Of a DNA stretch of 6,174 bases, positions 1-6,174 are shown piece by piece. The stretch is from Candidatus Nanopusillus sp. GTDB taxonomy: Archaea > Nanobdellota > Nanobdellia > Nanobdellales > Nanobdellaceae. The notes beneath the pieces are model-generated. The model was given only the letters and a program-made list of their open reading frames with translations, made no database searches and was not told where the DNA came from. A program made the translations under genes and the position numbers. The stretch lies in NCBI GenBank assembly GCA_046536775.1, contig JAWDMD010000026.1, positions 1 through 6,174 of the forward strand, read 5' to 3'. Positions within the stretch are counted from its first letter, which is position 1, and each line of letters opens with the position of its first letter.

Positions 1-815
1 GCAAGTACGAGGGGTCGTTCGCGGAGCTGATAGGCGCGAGGGTCCTGGACCTCTCGGAGCCGCAGGGCCTGAACCCGTACGACGTCTTCGAGACGCCGGC
101 CGCGGCCGCGTCCTTCATAGCTGACCTCGCGGGGATAGTCGAGCCGGACCTCCGCGCGGAGCTGAACCTCATACAGGCGGGGGACGTGTACGAGCTGGTG
201 GACAAGGCGGAGGGATCCCTCAAGAAGAGGCTGGAGGCCGGCCTGAAGCCATTCGAGAGCCTGTGGTCCGCGAGGAGCGACCTCTACGGACGCCAGGTGT
301 TCGTCCTCAGCAGCATAGCGAGCTCCGCGGTGCGCGACGCGGCCGCCTACTTGGTGCTCGCGTGGATCTGGAGGACGGTGAAGAAGCTGCCGGTGCGCGA
401 GCGCAAGATGATCGTGGTGGACGAGGGGTGGGCCTTCGTGGAGACGGATCCCCGCACCGGGAAGCCGTACTTCCCGGGGGCGGTCGGGTTCGTGCCCGAG
501 ATAGCGAGGACGGGCCGCCACTACAACGCGGCGTTCATCATCGCGACGCAGAGGGTCTCGGACATGATGTCCGGGCCGGGCCGCGTCGTGATGGAGAGCG
601 CGGCCACAAAGATAGTCCTGAGGCAGGATTCGGCCGCCATCGACCTGCTGGCCGGGCCGCTCTCGCTCTCGCCCGAGGAGCAGAGGTTCATACTCAGCGC
701 GCGGGTCGGCCAGGGCCTGCTCATATCGCCGCTGGGCCACGTCCCGTTCCGCAACCTGCTCTCGAAGGGCGAGCTGGAGAGGTTCACTACTAAGCCCAAG
801 GAGGTCAGCCGCTAG
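1..815 (+). CDS. VirB4/TrbE/CedB-type (HerA-FtsK superfamily, AAA_10-like) secretion/conjugation ATPase, C-terminal ~270 aa; the 5' end lies outside the window
   Basis: Frame 3 is open from base 3 to TAG 813-815. I hand-translated 3-185 as KYEGSFAELIGARVLDLSEPQGLNPYDVFETP... with no stop, so the GTG at 186 in the ORF track is an internal codon. Motifs in the translation: LNPYD; a Walker B-like block KMIVVDEGWAF; ARTGRHYNAAFIIATQRVSDM; and the tail ELERFTTKPKE, which resembles the FTTxPxE ending of VirB4/TrbE-like ATPases. Walker A must lie upstream of the window. GC3 is high. Confidence 0.85.
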   Translation, partial: KYEGSFAELIGARVLDLSEPQGLNPYDVFETPAAAASFIADLAGIVEPDLRAELNLIQAGDVYELVDKAEGSLKKRLEAGLKPFESLWSARSDLYGRQVFVLSSIASSAVRDAAAYLVLAWIWRTVKKLPVRERKMIVVDEGWAFVETDPRTGKPYFPGAVGFVPEIARTGRHYNAAFIIATQRVSDMMSGPGRVVMESAATKIVLRQDSAAIDLLAGPLSLSPEEQRFILSARVGQGLLISPLGHVPFRNLLSKGELERFTTKPKEVSR

Positions 816-819
816 AGGC

Positions 820-843
820 GCGCATACTTGTGCAAGTATTACC
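820..843. repeat. Degenerate copy (P1) of the locus palindrome: GCGCATACTTGTGCAAGTATTACC
   Basis: The right half-site GCAAGTATTACC (832-843) is identical to the copies at 3942-3953 and 5707-5718. The left arm is degenerate and the centre has a C->T change. It starts 4 nt after the ATPase stop codon, between convergent genes, and no TATA box is nearby. Confidence 0.6.
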
Positions 844-914
844 GGCCGCGGCCCGGCGGAGCTCCCGCTGGGGATCGGGCGGGTGAGAAAAGGGGGTCAG
901 GGAAGGGGGGGAGG

Positions 915-1472
915 TCAGGCGCGCTTCAGGGGCCACCTATGCAGGAACTTTCCCTCGTGCAGGCGATACCGGTACCCGCCGAGGACCAGCCCCGTCTCGG
1001 CGGGCGCCGCCCGCACCCGCTCCAGGAACTCCCGGAGCGGGGGCCCCGCGAACGGCCCCGCCGGCTCGCCCGACGGGGTCGTCACTAAGACCCACTCGCC
1101 GTGCCCGTTCTTTGAGCGCCTCCACTCCAGGGCCTCCAAGGCCCTGGAGAGGGCCGCATCGCCGTTCCCCGCGTCGGGCCTCAGGGGCTCCATAACCCCC
1201 GGGGCCGGCGCCGCGGGCTCCTTCGCCTCCGCCTGCCCGGCCACGGGCGCGGCCGCCGGCGCGGCCGGCGCCGGGGCGGGCGCCCCAGCGATCGCCGGGC
1301 CCGGCAGGAACTGTAGGGCGCGGGCCAGCACCACCGCGCGCTCCTCGGGCGATGCCCGCGGGAGCGCGGCGACGATGGCCACGCGCACCGGGGCTACGAC
1401 CTCGCTCAGCCACCGCTCGACCGCCGCGACGGCCTCCTCCCCCTTCTTCTCGGACTTGTTCTCGCTCGACAT
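915..1472 (-). CDS. Hypothetical two-domain protein (185 aa): helical N-domain, Ala/Pro-rich linker, and a C-domain with WRRSKNGHGEWVLV...GGYRYRLHEGKFLHRWP
   Basis: ATG at 1472..1470 is preceded on the minus strand by TATA GTTAAAAG (rc of 1497-1504) with a 24-nt spacer. Amino-acid composition is natural and GC3 is high. The overlapping track ORFs 937..1578(-) and 883..1503(+) are Arg/Gly/Ala-rich shadow frames. The linker is aa 57-92 (nt 1197-1304). I recognise no family. Confidence 0.75.
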   Translation of the reverse strand: MSSENKSEKKGEEAVAAVERWLSEVVAPVRVAIVAALPRASPEERAVVLARALQFLPGPAIAGAPAPAPAAPAAAPVAGQAEAKEPAAPAPGVMEPLRPDAGNGDAALSRALEALEWRRSKNGHGEWVLVTTPSGEPAGPFAGPPLREFLERVRAAPAETGLVLGGYRYRLHEGKFLHRWPLKRA

Positions 1473-1496
1473 TTCCGCGCCCCCGTGCCGAGGGGC

Positions 1497-1504
1497 CTTT
1501 TAAC
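1497..1504 (-). promoter_or_regulatory. TATA box (GTTAAAAG on the minus strand) for the 915..1472 gene
   Basis: It is an AT island in GC-rich DNA, 24 nt upstream of the ATG at 1472. This is the same geometry as the other promoters in the window. Confidence 0.6.
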
Positions 1505-1516
1505 GCGCCGGCGTGC

Positions 1517-1532
1517 ATATCTGCGCAGATAT
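1517..1532. repeat. Variant palindrome (P4) ATATCTGCGCAGATAT, a perfect 16 bp
   Basis: It shares the TGCGCA centre and the TATTAC right flank (1529-1535) with the main palindrome family. Its centre is 52.5 nt upstream of the ATG at 1472. The equivalent 24-bp footprint (1513-1536) ends 8 bp from the TATA box at 1497-1504. Confidence 0.6.
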
Positions 1533-1633
1533 TACGCGCCGCGCTGGTCGCCGCCGCCGTCCGCGAGGGCCTGCTCACGGGAGGGCTCTGGGAGTGCGCC
1601 CACTGCCCCTACCGCCGCGAGTGCCGGCCCGGG

Positions 1634-2566
1634 TTGCTGCCGGGGATCCCGGAGGGGTCCGCGGTCGCGGTCGCGGAGGTGGACGGCGCATTAGTTGATG
1701 ACTCGGAGCGCCGCCGCGCCGCATTGGCGGCCGCCGGCGCGTCGCTCGACGCGCCGCCGTGGAGGCTGACGGGCGAGGCGCGCGCGAGGTTCCTCGAGGC
1801 GTACTACGCAGAGGAGGCGCTGCGCCACGATAAACCGGGCCCACTGCTCGCGAGGGCGCTACGCCGCCCGGAGGGCTCGCGCCTCATCGTGGTGACCTCG
1901 CGCCCAGAGCGCCTGAGGTCCGCCACGGAGGCGGAGCTCCGCGGGCTCGGCGCCGCGCCGGACGCGCTGATCATGGCCCCGCCCGGCACCGAGGACGACT
2001 GGCGCGAGCGCATGCTGGAGCTGCTGGCCGAGGAGTACGGGCTCGCGCTCGTGCTGGACCCCGACCCGTGGGTCAGGAGGGCGGCCGAGCGGCTCGGGGC
2101 CGAGGCGCCGAGGCCGCGAGGGCGCGCGCATATAAGGCCGCGCGGAGTCCTTGGCTCTTGTTGTACTTGTTGTTGTGCTTGTGTTTGTTTATATAGCACT
2201 TCCACAGAAACCCACCCAATGGCGCTCGTTCAGGTCCTCGAGGAGGCCCTGCGCAGCGGCGACGAGAGGGAGATCGAGAGGGCCGTGAAGGAGCTGAAGA
2301 AATGGCTGGACTGGTTCGGCCCCCGGTACTTCGGGCTGGCGGTACAGGACACTTGGATCGCGGCGCCGCCCGAGAGGCGCCAGATGATCGAGGAGATGGT
2401 GAAAGAGCTGGAGAGTGTGCATAAGGAGGCCGCTTGGTGGGCCCAATACTACATAAAGCGCGCCAAGGAGGCTGAGAAGAAGGCTGAGAAGGATGAGCGC
2501 TCCGGCGAAATGTCAGGGCAGGAAGAGGGCGGTAGGCGACATCCTGAAATGTGCGCGCGTGGCTAG
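1634..2566 (+). CDS. Composite stop-free ORF: a HAD-superfamily phosphatase-like module (to about 2107), a TG-rich island, then a helical 115-aa module
   Basis: Frame 2 is uninterrupted. The first canonical start beyond the divergent gene is TTG 1634, and the next is GTG 1679. The track ATG at 1352 overlaps the divergent gene's 5' end, TATA and palindrome, and its N-terminal extension (1352 to about 1535) is Arg/Pro-rich shadow-frame sequence. HAD-like blocks: AVAVAEVDGAL (EVDGAL = 1676-1693), LIVVTSRPE (1883-1909), LVLDPDP (2048-2068). The start is unresolved, and no in-frame stop occurs before TAG 2564-2566. Confidence 0.5.
   Translation: MLPGIPEGSAVAVAEVDGALVDDSERRRAALAAAGASLDAPPWRLTGEARARFLEAYYAEEALRHDKPGPLLARALRRPEGSRLIVVTSRPERLRSATEAELRGLGAAPDALIMAPPGTEDDWRERMLELLAEEYGLALVLDPDPWVRRAAERLGAEAPRPRGRAHIRPRGVLGSCCTCCCACVCLYSTSTETHPMALVQVLEEALRSGDEREIERAVKELKKWLDWFGPRYFGLAVQDTWIAAPPERRQMIEEMVKELESVHKEAAWWAQYYIKRAKEAEKKAEKDERSGEMSGQEEGGRRHPEMCARG
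2129..2218 (+). promoter_or_regulatory. AT/TG-rich promoter-like island inside the open frame: TATA-like CATATAAG (2129-2136), TG-rich tract (2151-2190), TATA-like TTTATATA (2188-2195)
   Basis: GC content drops sharply here. In frame it reads as eight TGT Cys codons, whereas the upstream module's Cys codons are TGC. TTTATATA lies 23 nt upstream of ATG 2219, matching the leaderless geometry. The T-rich runs (GTGTTTGTTT) could also act as an archaeal terminator for the upstream module. Confidence 0.5.
2219..2566 (+). CDS. Helical/coiled-coil hypothetical protein (115 aa), nested in frame within 1634..2566 and probably expressed independently
   Basis: ATG 2219 has its own TATA-like element at the standard distance. 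The translation is clearly protein-like: MALVQVLEEALRSGDEREIERAVKELKKWLDWFGPRYF...KRAKEAEKKAEKDE. GC3 is high. This call is an alternative to, or isoform of, the long call. Confidence 0.6.
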   Translation: MALVQVLEEALRSGDEREIERAVKELKKWLDWFGPRYFGLAVQDTWIAAPPERRQMIEEMVKELESVHKEAAWWAQYYIKRAKEAEKKAEKDERSGEMSGQEEGGRRHPEMCARG

Positions 2567-3623
2567 GGTGCAACGCGAGGTCGTCTTCGAGAGCCATAAC
2601 TGGTTCCACGAGAAATCTGAGATCACCTTTTACAACGAGTGCGATGAGGAGCTGGACGTCATATGTGTGGATAGGCGCGCCCTCAGCCTGAATCTGGGCG
2701 CACTCTTCGAGTATAAGTACGCGGCCGTCCTGCGGGCGTACGGTGAGGACGGCACGTGGCTTAACCTGCTGAGGAGCGCAGACCCGTGCCTGGAGGGCGG
2801 CGGCCCAGGGCACATATGCTTCAGTCTCCCGGCGATCAAGCTGAGACCCCATGAATACTACACCGTGCAGCTCATGTACGAGGGGTCGCCGCTCTCAATT
2901 GAGGAGCCCTCCGCGGTGGTGAAGCGCTACACGCGGCGGTCACTGCTTTCCGCGGTCAAGCCGTACAGGGACGTCCCCGTGCTCATGTGGAACTATCCGC
3001 CCGGAAGAGCTCCGAGTATAATGCCGCAGTCGCTGTACACCGTGTTCCGCATTAGGGAGGACTGGTTGGAGATCGACGAGGGGTGGGCCAGGAAGTCCTT
3101 AGAGGAGGGTGAAGGAGTGATGGGCAAGTTGAAGAGTAAGCTCGACGTGATCGCGCTCAGCAATCGCGCGCTCGGCTACCGCATGGAGATTCCTTCAAGC
3201 ACGGAAAAGCTGGAGCTAGAGGAATTAGGGCCCGTTATCCCGAGGCCAGACGCGCGGCCAGCGGAGAGATTTGCGGCATTATTATTTATGTGGGCGTGGT
3301 TATTGGAGGTACCATATTACATTACACTCAAGCTTAGGGTGAATTTATTGTACAGATTGCTCGCGGTTCTCGTTGAGATCCTAGGGTTTCTCACGGCGGC
3401 CCTCTCATTGGTCTTCATGTCCCTTGTGCTCTGGCGCGGACAACAATCGATGATCGGCGATGGCCTGCTCCTGCTGACCACACTCTTCATCATAGTGCTG
3501 GGCAACTACTTGACGCTACCCAAGGGCGGCCCGCTGAGGTACGGGCTACTCGGCGGCGCGCTGGCCGCGGCCGCAGCGTCTGTGGCGGGGCTCGCAGTCA
3601 TGATGTTGCTGCGTATGCTCTAA
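2493..3623 (+). CDS. Membrane protein (376 aa): soluble beta-rich N-domain of about 255 aa plus about 4 C-terminal TM helices
   Basis: It is a long ORF with natural composition. TM segments: FAALLFMWAWLLEVPYYITL, LLAVLVEILGFLTAALSLVFMSLVLW, GLLLLTTLFIIVLGNYLTL, YGLLGGALAAAAASVAGLAVMMLLRML (about nt 3270-3620). Start alternatives are ATG 2493 (74-nt overlap with the upstream ORF, and frame 3 has the higher GC3 across the overlap), GTG 2559, and GTG 2568 (2 nt after the upstream stop). I recognise no family. Confidence 0.75.
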   Translation: MSAPAKCQGRKRAVGDILKCARVARVQREVVFESHNWFHEKSEITFYNECDEELDVICVDRRALSLNLGALFEYKYAAVLRAYGEDGTWLNLLRSADPCLEGGGPGHICFSLPAIKLRPHEYYTVQLMYEGSPLSIEEPSAVVKRYTRRSLLSAVKPYRDVPVLMWNYPPGRAPSIMPQSLYTVFRIREDWLEIDEGWARKSLEEGEGVMGKLKSKLDVIALSNRALGYRMEIPSSTEKLELEELGPVIPRPDARPAERFAALLFMWAWLLEVPYYITLKLRVNLLYRLLAVLVEILGFLTAALSLVFMSLVLWRGQQSMIGDGLLLLTTLFIIVLGNYLTLPKGGPLRYGLLGGALAAAAASVAGLAVMMLLRML

Positions 3624-3739
3624 CCGGGGCTCGCGCGGGCGGTGAAAGTGAACGATATGACCGATCCATAGACTTAGCTATACCGAGGGAGCGTAAATCG
3701 ACGTCCCGATCGGGGGAGTTCGGGCGTAAGTATGAGCCT

Positions 3740-3892
3740 TCAGGCGGCCACACCGAGCACCGTCATCAGCGCGGCCCCCAGCGCGGCGGGCGCCCAGGCG
3801 AGGTCGTCGACCTCCCTGCTCCTCAGGTCCTGGTGGGCCGCCGCGGCGTAGCTCGCGGCCACGAGCGCCGTGCCGGCGAGCGCCGGGTCCAC
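3740..3892 (-). CDS. Unlisted small ORF, 50 aa, two hydrophobic helices with a charged loop: MDPALAGTALVAASYAAAAHQDLRSREVDDLAWAPAALGAALMTVLGVAA. Candidate helical-hairpin (VirB2/CedA1/TedC-style) pilin or small membrane protein
   Basis: I reverse-translated it by hand. GTG (rc of 3890-3892) to TGA (rc of 3740-3742) is 153 nt, and an in-frame TAG (rc of 3914-3916) lies 7 codons upstream, so GTG is the only possible start. Of 50 codons, 49 end in G/C. The start is preceded by CTTTTTAG (rc of 3914-3921), 3 nt, GCGGCCGCACG and 7 nt, the same cassette as the divergent pilin-like gene. The track ORF 3678..3914(-) over this region is an Arg/Gly shadow frame. Confidence 0.55.
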   Translation of the reverse strand: MDPALAGTALVAASYAAAAHQDLRSREVDDLAWAPAALGAALMTVLGVAA

Positions 3893-3913
3893 GCGCGCCC
3901 GTGCGGCCGCGCA

Positions 3914-3921
3914 CTAAAAAG
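3914..3921 (-). promoter_or_regulatory. TATA box (CTTTTTAG on the minus strand) for the 50-aa ORF
   Basis: It lies 21 nt upstream of the GTG at 3892 and 8 bp from the edge of the palindrome. Confidence 0.55.
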
Positions 3922-3929
3922 CGCCACGT

Positions 3930-3953
3930 GGTAATACTTGCGCAAGTATTACC
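3930..3953. repeat. Perfect 24-bp palindrome (P2) GGTAATACTTGCGCAAGTATTACC, the putative operator of a divergent promoter
   Basis: The reverse complement of GGTAATACTTGC is GCAAGTATTACC. It lies between two divergent TATA boxes, with gaps of 8 and 9 bp. It is an AT-rich island. Confidence 0.8.
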
Positions 3954-3962
3954 GGCGTTGCC

Positions 3963-3970
3963 CTTTTAAG
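3963..3970 (+). promoter_or_regulatory. TATA box CTTTTAAG for the pilin-like gene
   Basis: A 20-nt spacer (CCGCGGCCGCACGTGTCGCC) separates it from GTG 3991, implying a leaderless transcript. Confidence 0.65.
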
Positions 3971-3990
3971 CCGCGGCCGCACGTGTCGCC

Positions 3991-4992
3991 GTGAGGCGCA
4001 GGGCGGCCATATCCCAGATGCTCGGCACCCTGATACTGATCGCGATCGTGCTGGTCGCGGCCGTGCTGGTGTACCATGCCGGAATGTTTGCCGCGCAGCG
4101 CGCCTCCGGCGGCGCGGGGATCTCGGTGAGCGGCGCCTCCGTGGAGGCGTTCCCCGGCGGCGCGTTCGTGACGCTCACGGTCACGAACACCGGGAGCGCG
4201 CCCGGGTACGTCTCGGTGGCGCTCTACCAGGGAGGGTCGCGGGTCTTCTGGGCGCCGGGCGCGCCCGGGCTGCTGTACCAGATATACACGAACCCGAACA
4301 TAATGTGGGACGAGCCGCCCGAGTCGCTCGTGTACTCGGCCCCGCTGGCCCCCGGCAGCTCCTTCCAGTACGACGGCACCTGGAGCGCGCCGGTCGGGCC
4401 CTGGACCACGCCCGGCGCCGGGTCGGCGCAGGACGTGAACGGGCAGACCCAGCCCAACGTGATAGACAACATGCAGTATGAGTACACGGGCGGCGCGCCC
4501 TTCCCGAACCCGCCCGTCTCCGCCCCCGGGAACGAGTTCGCGATCAAGGAGATAGGGTACATGGTGGTGACCCAGCCCACCGTGTTCTACGTGGACATAG
4601 ACGACGGCGGGGCGCTGGGCGCGATCCCCTACAGCCCCGGCGTTTTCACTCAGGAGACCTCGTGGCTCGGGGGGACCTCCAACCCCGCGAACCTGATAAG
4701 CGCGTGGTACGGCCAGCCCGCGACTGTACACTCCTCGGGCACGGTGCAGCCCGGCACCTACCTCGTGGAGTACGACTACTTCCAGTTCGGCGGCGGCGCC
4801 TACTGGAGCCTGTGGTCGAGCGCGCCGGTGTATTACTACCACCCGGTGCTCCTGTACCCCGGGCAGTCCGCGATTCTCAACTACACGCTCGCGGCGCAGC
4901 TGCAGCCCGGCTCGCAGTGCACGGTCTCGGCGACCATAACAACGCCGGCCGGGACCGCCACCGCATCCGCGACCGTCACGGTCGCGCCTTGA
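3991..4992 (+). CDS. Type IV pilin-like protein (archaeal class III signal peptide) with a beta-sandwich region, a PA14-like carbohydrate-binding domain and a Thr/Ala-rich C-terminal beta domain (333 aa)
   Basis: The N-terminus MRRRAAISQMLGTLILIAIVLVAAVLVY matches the archaeal prepilin pattern: basic residues, small residue, then ISxxxGTLxLIAIxxV. PA14-like blocks lie at aa ~92-277 (nt 4264-4821): GLLYQIY, NEFAIKEIGYMVVTQPTVFYVDIDDGGAL, VQPGTYLVEYDYFQFGGGAYWSLWSS. GC3 is high, and every overlapping track ORF is a shadow frame. Confidence 0.85.
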   Translation: MRRRAAISQMLGTLILIAIVLVAAVLVYHAGMFAAQRASGGAGISVSGASVEAFPGGAFVTLTVTNTGSAPGYVSVALYQGGSRVFWAPGAPGLLYQIYTNPNIMWDEPPESLVYSAPLAPGSSFQYDGTWSAPVGPWTTPGAGSAQDVNGQTQPNVIDNMQYEYTGGAPFPNPPVSAPGNEFAIKEIGYMVVTQPTVFYVDIDDGGALGAIPYSPGVFTQETSWLGGTSNPANLISAWYGQPATVHSSGTVQPGTYLVEYDYFQFGGGAYWSLWSSAPVYYYHPVLLYPGQSAILNYTLAAQLQPGSQCTVSATITTPAGTATASATVTVAP

Positions 4993-4995
4993 GCA

Positions 4996-5658
4996 TCACG
5001 TGAGAGCCGCCGCCAGCTTCAGCACCATGTCCACCGCCCACATGTGCTCCGGTGGGGCGAGCACGGGTATCCGGTCGACATTGGCCATGAGCTCTCCCAG
5101 GGTCCACTCGAAGGCCTCGTCATCCGCGCGGCCGTCGAGGCGCGCGACTAAGATGGCCGCGTGCCTCGCCAGGGCCGAGAGGACCTCCATTGGGAAATAT
5201 TGGTCCTCGAGTCCGCCCGCCCGGTCGGCGACCATCTCGTACTCGCGCATCAGCGCGTGGTAGTACACGTAGAGATTGGTGTTCTCGGCGAGGTCCGGAA
5301 AGCGCTCGTCCAGATAGCGCAGGAACTCCCCACGCCTCTCCGCCAGGGCCTCCGCCTGCCTCCCCGCGAACTCGCGGAGGATCTCCCACTGCTCCCCCTC
5401 GCCCAGCCGCGAGAACAGCCGGATGAGCTCCGCGAGCTCCGGGTCCGCCCTCCCCAAGGCGTCCTCCAGGCCCGCGAGCTCCGGCCCCTCCGGGGAGCCG
5501 AGCTCCCAGCGCACGAGGCCGACCAGCGCGTCGACCACCTTATCCACCGGGATCCCCGCGCCCACCCCGCGGGCGGGGTGGGACCTCTCGCGGATCTCGC
5601 GCGCCGGCAGGATCTCCAGCGCGCCCGCCAGCGGTGAGGGACTCGCGCCCATGTCCAC
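4996..5658 (-). CDS. Hypothetical acidic helical protein (220 aa)
   Basis: GTG at 5658 (an alternative ATG lies at 5652) is preceded on the minus strand by TATA CTTATATT (rc of 5680-5687) with a 21-nt spacer, and by palindrome P3 8 bp further upstream. Composition is natural and GC3 is high. It converges on the pilin-like gene with a 3-bp gap. I recognise no family. Confidence 0.75.
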   Translation of the reverse strand: MDMGASPSPLAGALEILPAREIRERSHPARGVGAGIPVDKVVDALVGLVRWELGSPEGPELAGLEDALGRADPELAELIRLFSRLGEGEQWEILREFAGRQAEALAERRGEFLRYLDERFPDLAENTNLYVYYHALMREYEMVADRAGGLEDQYFPMEVLSALARHAAILVARLDGRADDEAFEWTLGELMANVDRIPVLAPPEHMWAVDMVLKLAAALT

Positions 5659-5679
5659 GCACGCTTCTGCGCCGGGCGC

Positions 5680-5687
5680 AATATAAG
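5680..5687 (-). promoter_or_regulatory. TATA box (CTTATATT on the minus strand) for the 4996..5658 gene
   Basis: It lies 21 nt upstream of the GTG at 5658 and 8 bp (5688-5695) from palindrome P3. Confidence 0.6.
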
Positions 5688-5695
5688 ATCGGTGC

Positions 5696-5717
5696 GTAAT
5701 ACTTGCGCAAGTATTAC
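5696..5717. repeat. Perfect 22-bp palindrome (P3) GTAATACTTGCGCAAGTATTAC
   Basis: It is the same sequence as P2 without the outermost base pair. Its centre is 48.5 nt upstream of the GTG at 5658. Its right arm contains the TAA stop (rc of 5714-5716) of the 5714..6103 gene. Confidence 0.8.
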
Positions 5718-6103
5718 CGCGCGCGGCCTCGCCAGGTCGGCGGGGGCGCGAGGCGCGGCGCCAGCCACACCGCGAAGACGTTGTTCACAACGACCGCGCC
5801 GTTGAGTATGATGAGCGCGGCCGCGGCGCCGTGGAACAGCGGGATGATGCGCGGCCGGGCGAGCGCCCTCGCGTATATGTAGCGGAGCGCGAGCGTGAAT
5901 ATCAGGACCCTCACGAGCGCGTCCGCGGCGAGCCCCCCGGCGAGCCCCAGCGCGCCGATGAGCGAGGCGGTCACGGGGTCGCCCTCCGCGACCGGCAGGC
6001 TCGGGTCACTCAGCGCGAGGTACGTGAGCAGGACGTCGGCGGCCACTAGGAGGTCCGCGGCCAGCGCGGCCGCGATCAGGGAGCGGCGCGTGGGCGGCCT
6101 CAC
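5714..6103 (-). CDS. Small polytopic membrane protein (129 aa), DUF5658-like
   Basis: GTG at 6103 lies 20 nt downstream (minus strand) of CTTTTAAG (rc of 6124-6131). Hydrophobic segments: LIAAALAADLLVAADVLLTYLAL, LIGALGLAGGLAADALV, IIPLFHGAAAALIILNGAVVVNNVFAVWL. The pattern D-x2-LT-x2-AL ... EGDP resembles the D..LT...L...E.NP signature that I recall for the DUF5658 family. That is a memory-based assignment and has not been searched. Confidence 0.7.
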   Translation of the reverse strand: MRPPTRRSLIAAALAADLLVAADVLLTYLALSDPSLPVAEGDPVTASLIGALGLAGGLAADALVRVLIFTLALRYIYARALARPRIIPLFHGAAAALIILNGAVVVNNVFAVWLAPRLAPPPTWRGRAR

Positions 6104-6123
6104 GCGCGCGCGTGGTGGGGCGC

Positions 6124-6131
6124 CTTAAAAG
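6124..6131. promoter_or_regulatory. Quasi-symmetric TATA box CTTAAAAG, placed to serve both divergent genes
   Basis: Exactly 20 nt separate it from the GTG at 6103 (minus strand) and from the GTG at 6152 (plus strand). The plus-side spacer carries GCGGGCGCACG + 7 nt + GTG, matching the cassette at 3963-3993. Confidence 0.55.
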
Positions 6132-6151
6132 CCGCGGGCGCACGCTGGGCC

Positions 6152-6174
6152 GTGAGCACCGTTCGCGCTTCGGG
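6152..6174 (+). CDS. Start of a further gene (MSTVRAS...), truncated by the window end
   Basis: Only 23 nt are visible. The call rests on the promoter-to-start cassette 6124-6154, which matches 28 of 34 positions of the pilin-like gene cassette 3961-3994, including the distance to GTG. Confidence 0.35.

Follow-up and report, generated by a model that had tools for sequence, protein, structure and literature searches.

The 6,174-nt stretch analysed here (the window), positions 1 to 6,174 of contig JAWDMD010000026.1 from the Candidatus Nanopusillus sp. assembly GCA_046536775.1, begins inside a gene for a VirB4/TrbE-family ATPase and includes a gene for a pilin-type surface protein, designated g333, together with copies of a 22-base palindrome. 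It raises the question of whether these genes form a chromosomal DNA importer, in which DNA transfer and mate recognition share one regulon, as proposed in a first-pass annotation of the sequence, or belong to a mobile element, which that annotation named as the alternative. The evidence favours the mobile element. The preferred reading, given a probability of about 0.6, places the window inside the mating-apparatus region of a conjugative element of the thaumarchaeal type, of which it would be one internal piece, with the palindrome as probable operator and recombination hot spot. The element could be an integrative-conjugative element (ICE) or a plasmid, and sequence relationships indicate that its host is probably a high-GC, thermophilic hot-spring archaeon of the Nitrososphaeria, related to Conexivisphaera.

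Under this proposal, the backbone of the region would comprise the VirB4/TrbE ATPase, two conserved proteins designated g185 and g129, and a VirB6-like membrane protein. The backbone genes would be separated by a recombination-prone accessory stretch holding the PA14-lectin-like pilin-type protein, orphan cargo and a decayed gene for DNA-end processing. The AT-rich palindrome, found 8-10 bp upstream of the TATA box at many promoters, would be the operator of an element-encoded dimeric DNA-binding protein that coordinates expression element-wide, in the manner of KorB and its OB sites on RK2. With this symmetric sequence recurring about once per kb, cassettes would also be deleted, inserted and inverted at it. 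Of these points, the identities of the genes, the places of the palindromes, the rearrangements between strains and the matches to CRISPR spacers are observed; DNA transfer, the part played by the adhesin, the operator and the mechanism of recombination are deduced. The comparisons below draw on context contigs, denoted by L-numbers, that are 84-99% identical to parts of the window and were collected via g333, g129 and the palindrome, exact matches to three proteins of the window having been sought without result; the total number of loci compared was 86.

The VirB4/TrbE-family ATPase and its neighbours

The name VirB4/CedB-type, first given to the ATPase, holds in its first half but not in its second. 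Among NCBIfam models, the fragment in the window matches TraC (1.3e-14) and VirB4_CagE (1.5e-10), and CedB at just 7e-3. A longer copy in L058, which is 94% identical, scores 54-66 bits on the VirB4_plasma, CD1110, TraC and VirB4_CagE models, and its top PDB match is the VirB4 C-terminal domain 4ag5 (E=6e-11). For this copy the CedB model gives 22 bits and an anti-phage HerA model 25. Across the ATPases tested, the CedB model NF041017, which has a cut-off of 700, reached 15-28 bits, less than any of the conjugal VirB4 models. The first-pass annotation had regarded an affiliation with HerA/FtsK as the result that would tell against its hypothesis; as the ATPase matches the conjugal VirB4/TraC models and 4ag5, it does not group there. 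Judged by these profiles, the protein is a conjugative-type ATPase of a type IV secretion system (T4SS), and is neither CedB-like nor HerA/FtsK-like.

The Walker A motif GQTGYGKST is present in the L001 orthologue, and the full-length orthologue in L082 has 632 amino acids (aa). A VirB4-type N-terminal domain, which lies outside the window, was recognised by VirB4_plasma and CD1110, which align to residues 16-244 in L058 and 113-347 in L017. The top scores of 54-110 bits do not reach the curated equivalog or subfamily cut-offs (325-643), and by this measure the ATPase is a divergent archaeal VirB4 branch outside all curated bacterial equivalogs. Relatives of the protein are scarce (27 matches). 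In a search of one genome per species the best were 42-55% identical, every one of them in metagenome-assembled genomes (MAGs) of Nitrososphaeria. Six assemblies hold 2-4 VirB4 copies, with four in Ca. Gagatemarchaeum stordalenia, for example. The best plasmid match is Thermococcus nautili pTN3 (25.6% identity over 99% of the query, 2e-31), followed by the TrbE-like ATPases of Sulfolobus pKEF9, pHVE14 and pNOB8 (E about 1e-24 to 1e-26), and no VirB4 relative was found in the viral collection. In the long-read ENA contig L003, the VirB4 gene (9119-11011) is broken across several frames. These breaks are probably assembly frameshifts, and database proteins of ~300-370 aa named VirB4 are therefore probably artefacts or fragments.

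Clustering of the open reading frames (ORFs) of the Nitrososphaeria VirB4 loci revealed a 225-aa membrane protein directly upstream of VirB4 (the VirB3 position), a 113-aa two-helix protein in the VirB2 position and a 560-770-aa polytopic protein in the VirB6 position. These loci further include genes for an 800-aa VirD4/TraG-like ATPase, which exceeds the cut-offs of the Pfam families T4SS-DNA_transf, TraG-D_C and TrwB_AAD_bind, for a secreted protein of 760 aa and for a ParB-like protein, as well as, at times, for a T2SSE ATPase. The gene that begins at the right edge of the window (Table 1) has a full product of ~590-625 aa in L046 and L082, which is 36-43% identical over 290-590 aa (38% over ~460 aa) to the Nitrososphaeria VirB6-position protein. 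It adjoins the locus in L046, L057, L058, L064, L068, L082 and L086. With this gene identified as VirB6-like, the window therefore spans the DNA between VirB4 and the VirB6-like gene, and the T4SS-like DNA-transfer locus suspected in the annotation is upheld.

The gap between g129 and VirB4 is 22 bp in L082, a compact variant of the locus, and in L068 a palindrome unit lies between the two genes. Because it is constantly beside the VirB6-like gene, and in the compact variant immediately precedes VirB4, g129 is likely a small membrane partner of the apparatus. Its former description as DUF5658-like found no support, with no Pfam match to this family for g129 at E≤0.1 and none among 13 family members (g129 and 12 relatives) at E≤1. 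Homology of g129 to VirB3 was considered and rejected, as profile-profile comparison with the Nitrososphaeria VirB3-position family gave a probability of 0.3%, which leaves a positional analogy alone. In L086, which has the gene order of the window, the position directly upstream of VirB4 is occupied not by g129 but by a gene for a 163-aa DUF1286 membrane protein (16709-17200; Pfam 5.6e-14). The g185 gene is near VirB4 in all variants.

Table 1. Features of the 6,174-nt window, in order of position.
Feature	Position	Strand	Remarks
VirB4/TrbE-family ATPase, C-terminal 270 codons	1-815 (frame from base 3; TAG 813-815)	+	Walker B MIVVDEGW
Palindrome P1, CGCATACTTGTGCAAGTATTAC	821-842	.	Between two convergent genes
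g185, conserved 185-aa protein	915-1472	-	Ala/Pro-rich linker; probably leaderless; TATA 1497-1502
Palindrome P2, degenerate, core ATATCTGCGCAGATAT	1514-1535	.	10 nt from g185 TATA box
Remnant of a Cas4-like nuclease and PNK-phosphatase/HAD fusion gene	1537-2128	+	442 aa intact in L046
Strain-specific lower-GC 1.8-kb insertion	2129-3926	.	Right end abuts P3
g115, 115-aa helical protein	2219-2566	+	Own TATA 2188-2195
g376, 376-aa protein	2493-3623	+	N-terminal beta-rich domain, then 3-4 C-terminal transmembrane helices
50-aa ORF	3740-3892	-	Correctly spaced TATA 3915-3920, ~25 nt upstream; unverified gene
Palindrome P3, perfect	3931-3952	.	9-10 nt from TATA boxes of the divergent 50-aa ORF and g333 promoters
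g333, 333-aa surface protein	3991-4992	+	Archaeal pilin-type N-terminal helix, immunoglobulin (Ig)-like domain, central PA14-lectin-like module, C-terminal Ig-like domain
g220, 220-aa soluble helical protein	4996-5658	-	TATA 5681-5686
Palindrome P4, perfect	5696-5717	.	8 nt from g220 TATA; overlaps g129 stop codon
g129, conserved small polytopic membrane protein	5714-6103	-	Always divergent from VirB6-like gene
TATA box CTTAAAAG	6124-6131		Single; 24.5 nt from starts of divergent, probably leaderless g129 (6103) and VirB6-like gene (6152); orthologue in L046
VirB6-like polytopic membrane protein, first codons	6152-6174 (GTG start; off right edge)	+	Assigned by synteny and orthologues

Promoters, the palindrome and rearrangements between strains

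A TATA-like box is centred 24-28 nt ahead of the start codon at every transcription unit of the window, and from this spacing the transcripts are probably leaderless. The TATA box midway between g129 and the VirB6-like gene (6103-6152) looks like a common bidirectional core promoter for the two. A promoter block, CCTTTTAAGCCGCGGCCGCAC..GTG, is present at 3962-3995 (g333) and again at 6123-6156 (VirB6-like gene), and likewise ahead of VirB4 in L068, L082 and L086. The common promoter cassette described earlier is thus confirmed, as is the single palindrome family, since the window holds three strong copies of GTAATACTTGCGCAAGTATTAC, as compared with 0 expected in shuffles, and in addition a degenerate one.

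The 64 unique copies hardly differ in the core GTAATACTTGCGCAAGTATTAC. The 20-mer TAATACTTGCGCAAGTATTA was found on 34 metagenome stretches, mostly of 58-74% G+C, the exceptions being two AT-rich contigs and a contig with a CRISPR array, and no contig of the viral collection carries the palindrome. A TATA-like run starts 7-10 nt from the edge of the 24-mer in 25 flanks of the 64 copies versus ~4 expected, and half of the copies have a TATA-like box within 20 nt. In the window, the palindrome stands next to the TATA box at the promoters of g333, the 50-aa ORF, g220 and g185. In L068 and L086, a copy is found 20 nt ahead of the VirB4 promoter, and this promoter shares a CCTTTTAAGCC.CGG.CGCA block with that of g333. 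There is no palindrome at the promoters of g129 and the VirB6-like gene or of g115 and g376. At orthologous sites, the palindrome is 92% identical as compared with 83% for its flanks, in a sample that favours conserved copies. Palindromes also occur at the 3' ends of genes, where they overlap the stop codons of g129 in the window and g333 in L046. A function as a terminator or as a single-stranded DNA hairpin is unlikely, as the stem is AT-rich and weak (predicted at about -8 kcal/mol at 37 C).

Two roles are probable for the palindrome, one as the operator of a regulator encoded by the element and the other as a recombination hot spot. For the first of these roles a model is offered by the IncP plasmid RK2, on which the ParB-family protein KorB binds scattered palindromic OB operators and coordinates the transfer, replication and partition genes. 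Here, too, one short palindrome recurs at many promoters, and ParB-family genes are found on palindrome-bearing contigs. Unlike in RK2, the promoters are of the archaeal TATA/TFB type and the putative operator lies upstream of the TATA box.

The second role is suggested by structural differences between strains, 5 or 6 of 8 of which end at palindromes. These are a cassette with the gene c9, a 1-kb cassette in L001, the right end of the 1.8-kb insertion in the window, the g220 cassette and both ends of an inversion of the VirB4 block. In L046 and L058, the site of the single copy at 821-842 is occupied by c9, a 135-aa pilin-type gene with a palindrome on each side, and L001 has a 1-kb version of this insert at the site of P1. 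The gene order in L082-L085 and L068 is VirB6-like(-), g129(+), VirB4(+). In the window type, represented by L086, the segment running from VirB4 to g185 has the opposite orientation, with the ends of the inversion at palindromes 10363 and 16683; P4 of the window corresponds to one end of this L082/L086 inversion. A smaller difference is seen between L068 (5640-5715) and L082 (5700-5735), where a 55-60-bp palindrome unit separates g129 from the VirB4 promoter in L068 and is absent in L082. The unit is an extended imperfect inverted repeat, GGCGCGC-GGTAATAC...GTATTAC-GCGCCCGG, and its presence or absence changes the C-terminus of g129. Hence, the gene set from VirB4 to the VirB6-like gene is not a fixed module and varies among closely related strains.

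The same observations might be explained if the palindrome were mainly a site-specific recombination site, at which a dedicated recombinase shuffles cassettes as in a shufflon or integron and so alters mating or surface specificity. In a broader form of this explanation, the recombination system would shuffle promoter-equipped cassettes, pilin-type lectin adhesins among them, with its site doubling as the operator of a global regulator. The coincidence of palindromes with the breakpoints of cassette gain, loss and inversion, the palindrome unit present in L068 and absent at the same junction of L082, the occurrence of two pilin-type surface proteins (g333 and c9) among the cassettes, and the capacity of a symmetric site for both deletion and inversion would all fit. 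In the shufflon of R64 (IncI1), the dedicated recombinase Rci acts on asymmetric 19-bp sfx sites and inverts the C-terminal exon segments lying between them, which alters PilV, an adhesin associated with the type IV thin pilus that probably sets recipient recognition. R64 is likewise a conjugative element with repeated short sites for rearrangement, but in the present locus the variation concerns whole genes with their promoters, the site is a perfect 22-bp palindrome without attC-like or asymmetric sfx-like architecture, and no recombinase gene was found beside the array in L046, L057, L082 or L086. Furthermore, the fixed 8-10-nt spacing to the TATA box is not expected of a pure recombination site, and homologous recombination between 22-35-bp repeats would yield the same products. 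In either form, this explanation is tentative and on balance unlikely.

It is improbable that the palindrome is a selfish miniature repeat, resembling a repetitive extragenic palindrome (REP) or a transposable element of the miniature inverted-repeat type (MITE), that spread in the intergenic DNA of a single sublineage of the element and plays no part in regulation. Its density differs sharply between sister variants, from ~10 copies in 17 kb of L086 to almost none in 15.7 kb of L082, a short unit is present or absent between variants, and some copies are at 3' ends or between convergent genes, as this would predict. However, 22 bp is too short for a MITE, no RAYT or IS200-type transposase was seen, and the predicted hairpin is weak for a thermophile. 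The spacing to the TATA box is strongly non-random, and the palindrome is more conserved than its flanks. An operator that also serves as a recombination hot spot is therefore preferred here.

The exact 20-mer also occurs in AT-rich intergenic DNA of L052 (88-108) and L063 (2470-2490), two near-identical AT-rich contigs (35-38% G+C) unrelated to the window. These copies could be due to chance, or could be the same protein-binding site in a distant element.

Signs of mobility and comparison with known systems

Palindrome-bearing contigs that do not overlap the window encode a P4-type primase, a PriX-domain protein, a ParB-MT-A70 protein, N6/N4 methylases, a predicted restriction-modification enzyme and giant pilin-type adhesins. 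On two of them, L050 and L070, a gene for TFIIB (Pfam 8e-25) is adjacent and convergent to a ParB-like gene (TIGR00180 2e-11). L070, a separate contig, also bears the only VirB2-position homologue of the lineage. The ParB-MT-A70 gene is physically linked to the VirB6-like/VirB4 locus in L057 and L086. Adhesin genes (795-2156 aa; Pfam Flg_new_2) are constant neighbours, and a PA14-like motif was seen by eye in one of them. No tRNA gene was detected in 20 related contigs, and no clear housekeeping genes were seen.

A CRISPR array occupies positions 1-2208 of L074 (contig Ga0080003_1010686) and has 31 repeats of GTTCAGAAGTACCTATGAGGGTTTGAAAC, a sequence for which no Rfam family was matched. At least 5 of its ~30 spacers match palindrome-bearing or related contigs. 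The spacer at 1938-1974 holds the entire palindrome, and its best protospacer, in L065, matches at 32/34 aligned bases. The g115 family is also targeted (28/30 in L079; 25/28 at 2240-2267 of the window), and the other matches are to a gene designated c4 (L066, L072) and to L078 and L055.

The surface protein g333 is part of the variable complement. Its N-terminus, MRRRAAISQMLGTLILIAIVLVAAVL, resembles archaeal class III signal peptides, and approaches arch_flag_Nterm (18.4 bits, 1e-3; cut-off 20) and UpsA (22.6 bits, 9e-5; cut-off 130) at scores below cut-off in both cases; the canonical KNKAISPIIATLILI is found in more distant relatives. In a comparison with the PDB, the family profile matched the archaeal 'flagellin' 8fk7 at E=0.01. 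The AlphaFold2 (AF2) model (pLDDT 79) starts with a helix, followed by an Ig-like sandwich, a beta domain in the centre and a second Ig-like domain at the C-terminus. Foldseek related the central domain to the PA14 lectins MpIBP, Flo5 and Epa with probability 1.0, a TM-score of 0.45-0.49 and an rmsd of ~7 A. The Pfam PA14 profile gave no match at E≤0.1, and a weak profile match was to the PA14-containing RsgI3 (E=0.035). Residues D204-D205-G206, a candidate for the Asp-Asp motif with which PA14 domains bind calcium and carbohydrate, are invariant or nearly so in 23 relatives. Two relatives that indicate the host, NAS2_1026 of Conexivisphaera calida and a protein of a Conexivisphaera MAG, are ~58-59% identical, and a 54% identical relative in L047 adjoins VirB3-like, VirB6-like, T2SSE, integrase and ParB-like genes. 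The identification of g333 as a pilin-like PA14 adhesin, already made in the annotation, and its association with T4SS-type elements are reasonably supported, and we infer that it is a glycan-binding adhesin for cell contact or mate-pair formation. The central 191 codons (4279-4852), which encode the PA14-like module, are an in-frame presence/absence polymorphism, and L057, L064, L073, L075 and L086 have a 131-142-aa version with only the pilin helix and two Ig-like domains. With the whole gene absent from L082 and shortened in several strains, g333 is an accessory, modular part of the locus.

In the light of these data, a chromosomal DNA importer of the Ced/Ted kind that shares one regulon with a type IV pilin for glycan recognition, as a counterpart of Ups and Ced fused together, is very doubtful. 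VirB4 and a VirB6-like gene without detectable VirD4 in 17-18 kb do correspond to the component set of Ced (Sulfolobales) and Ted (Thermoproteales), which also combine a T4SS-derived VirB4-like ATPase with a VirB6-like membrane protein and have no relaxase (PMC9905601), and the pilin-type PA14-fold protein has promoter and palindrome in common with VirB4. However, the ATPase fits conjugative VirB4/TrbE (the Sulfolobus TrbE proteins, pTN3) far better than CedB, with 54-66 bits on conjugative VirB4/TraC models as against 15-22. Unlike in Ced and Ted, no VirB2-like pilin of the CedA1/TedC type was found next to the locus, and the 50-aa ORF first taken for a mini-pilin is strain-specific. Both the PA14 module and the entire g333 are dispensable in sister variants. 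The locus varies among near-identical strains, is targeted by CRISPR spacers and is linked to a ParB-methylase gene, all of which suggests a mobile element rather than a domesticated importer. Nor is a regulon dedicated to two functions supported, given that the palindrome also occurs on contigs with replication, partition, methylase and adhesin genes and is absent from some promoters of the window itself. What had been described as a recognition-plus-transfer regulon is better described as an element-wide palindrome and promoter network that includes a variable lectin-like pilin protein.

An apparatus that moves no DNA, and instead builds a filament on the cell surface or secretes adhesion or biofilm proteins, the PA14 protein and the giant adhesins being its cargo or partners, would agree with the constant adhesin neighbours and with the failure to find a coupling protein or relaxase in the lineage, but has little likelihood, because conjugative plasmids carry the closest relatives of the ATPase that have been characterised, distant VirB4 relatives pair with VirD4, and relaxases are missing from archaeal conjugative plasmids too (PMC6563490).

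Several findings weigh against a conjugative element with an operator-like palindrome. Among the features that the annotation had suggested seeking in related DNA, the VirB6-like gene was found, but VirD4-like protein, integrase, att site and tRNA gene were not found in the lineage; VirD4-like protein, relaxase, integrase and att site were all missing from its 17-18-kb contigs. An integrase was seen just in the distant locus L047, and VirD4-like proteins only in the loci of the 42-55% identical relatives. Pfam, NCBIfam and comparison of a family profile with PDB sequences gave no match to VirB6 for the VirB6-like protein, which was assigned by synteny and by similarity to the proteins of the Nitrososphaeria clusters. 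No contig joins the T4SS locus to those with TFIIB, ParB and primase, and the link between them consists of the shared palindrome, the g115 cassette and ParB-MT-A70 (L057, L086). As to the palindrome, the half of its copies without a nearby TATA box, some of them between convergent genes, are a poor fit to a pure operator, and the compact variant L082 works with almost none. The palindrome contigs were gathered by exact match, which biases the sample towards conserved copies.

The closest known counterparts of the proposed conjugative element are the thaumarchaeal ICEs of Krupovic et al. 2019, which carry VirB4, VirD4, VirB6, VirB3 and pilins, a prepilin peptidase, and TFIIB next to ParB (PMC6563490). 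The two have in common VirB4/TrbE with VirB6- and VirB3-position proteins, pilin-type proteins in the conjugation region, TFIIB beside a ParB-like gene (here on contigs related to the locus by the palindrome), the lack of a relaxase, and a poor synteny ascribed to recombination (PMC6563490). They differ in the high-GC, probably Conexivisphaera-like host of the present element, in the failure to find VirD4, integrase and att in its lineage, and in the TFIIB and ParB-like genes of the palindrome-bearing contigs, which are convergent and not in one operon. A dense network of 22-bp palindromes with cassette rearrangements was not found mentioned in the passages of PMC6563490 that were consulted. 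Thus, the claim that no such arrangement had been described does not stand, and a fused transfer-plus-recognition regulon is largely covered already by the published thaumarchaeal elements. The novelty lies in the host lineage, in a network of palindromes associated with the rearrangement of cassettes, and in a pilin-type protein of PA14 fold and modular make-up.

The Sulfolobus conjugative plasmids (pNOB8, pING, pKEF9, pTC) also have a TrbE-like ATPase and a cluster of membrane proteins. Variants of pING and pNOB8 recombine at a short repeated motif, and to our knowledge no pilin-type PA14 protein occurs on these plasmids. Their structural instability is marked (PMC4390865). The present element differs in its ATPase, with ~25% identity, and in the phylum branch of its host, and the plasmids have TraG and a pNOB8-type integrase.

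Archaeal conjugation is poorly understood, and the literature searched contained no link of Conexivisphaera to conjugation and nothing comparable for its branch. The locus presents compact and rearranged versions of one VirB4/VirB6-like apparatus side by side in natural populations, together with a candidate recognition protein of lectin type, the PA14 module of which some strains have and others lack. A single DNA motif may tie transcription control to the plasticity of the element's genome. If the palindrome is indeed a regulator site that also drives cassette exchange, the locus would illustrate a way in which a mobile element of archaea brings diversity into its surface and cargo genes.

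The accessory stretch and minor features

The GC content along the window is 67-79%, except at 2100-3700, where it falls to 53-63%, in agreement with the lower-GC segments noted earlier. Third-codon-position GC (0.91-0.94) backs five genes, namely the ATPase fragment, g185, g333, g220 and g129. The lower-GC part consists of g115, g376 and the 50-aa ORF, and the insertion that carries them is not in L046, L057, L058, L064 or L086. Relatives of g115 are found at other positions of related contigs. The g376 family is very rare, with 6 relatives among 1.84 billion representatives; these keep the N-terminus from ATG 2493 and several Cys residues, and an alternative start at GTG 2568 was rejected on the former ground. 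The structure model of g376 was uninformative. The large extracytoplasmic-looking domain once attributed to this protein is not supported, as it has no signal peptide or N-terminal transmembrane helix and its transmembrane helices are exclusively C-terminal. The mini-pilin role suggested for the 50-aa ORF could likewise not be sustained, since the ORF lies inside the strain-specific insertion and has no relative in any of the loci compared.

Of the soluble proteins first left without a function, the one at ~1537-2128, called HAD-like, is a deletion remnant. The intact gene, at 1399-2727 of L046, encodes a Cas4-like PD-(D/E)XK nuclease (PADLOC Cas4 2e-16, PHROG 2e-30) fused to a PNK-phosphatase/HAD-like domain. 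In the window, this gene has lost 91 bp with the TATA box and start codon and 555 bp with the nuclease core, through two deletions at short repeats. The reading frame of the remnant continues into g115 only because the insertion has taken the place of its 3' end. Judged by its domains, the intact fusion is possibly a DNA-end-processing enzyme retained beside VirB4 in a relaxase-less element. In searches of the orphan proteins with PADLOC and PHROGs, this Cas4-like gene alone gave matches, and an Rfam search of the window returned nothing above noise. The g220 gene forms a cassette between two palindromes in L046 and is missing from L064 and L082.

Downstream of the compact VirB4 locus of L082 (10068-15733) are genes for a polytopic/coiled-coil protein of 812 aa and for a Tubulin_2-family protein of 855 aa (Pfam 9e-9); this second protein may serve the element in segregation or as a filament system. 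In the window, positions 1232-1303 are a GC-rich repeat with a 12-nt period, which codes for the Ala/Pro-rich linker APAPAAPAAAPVAG of g185.

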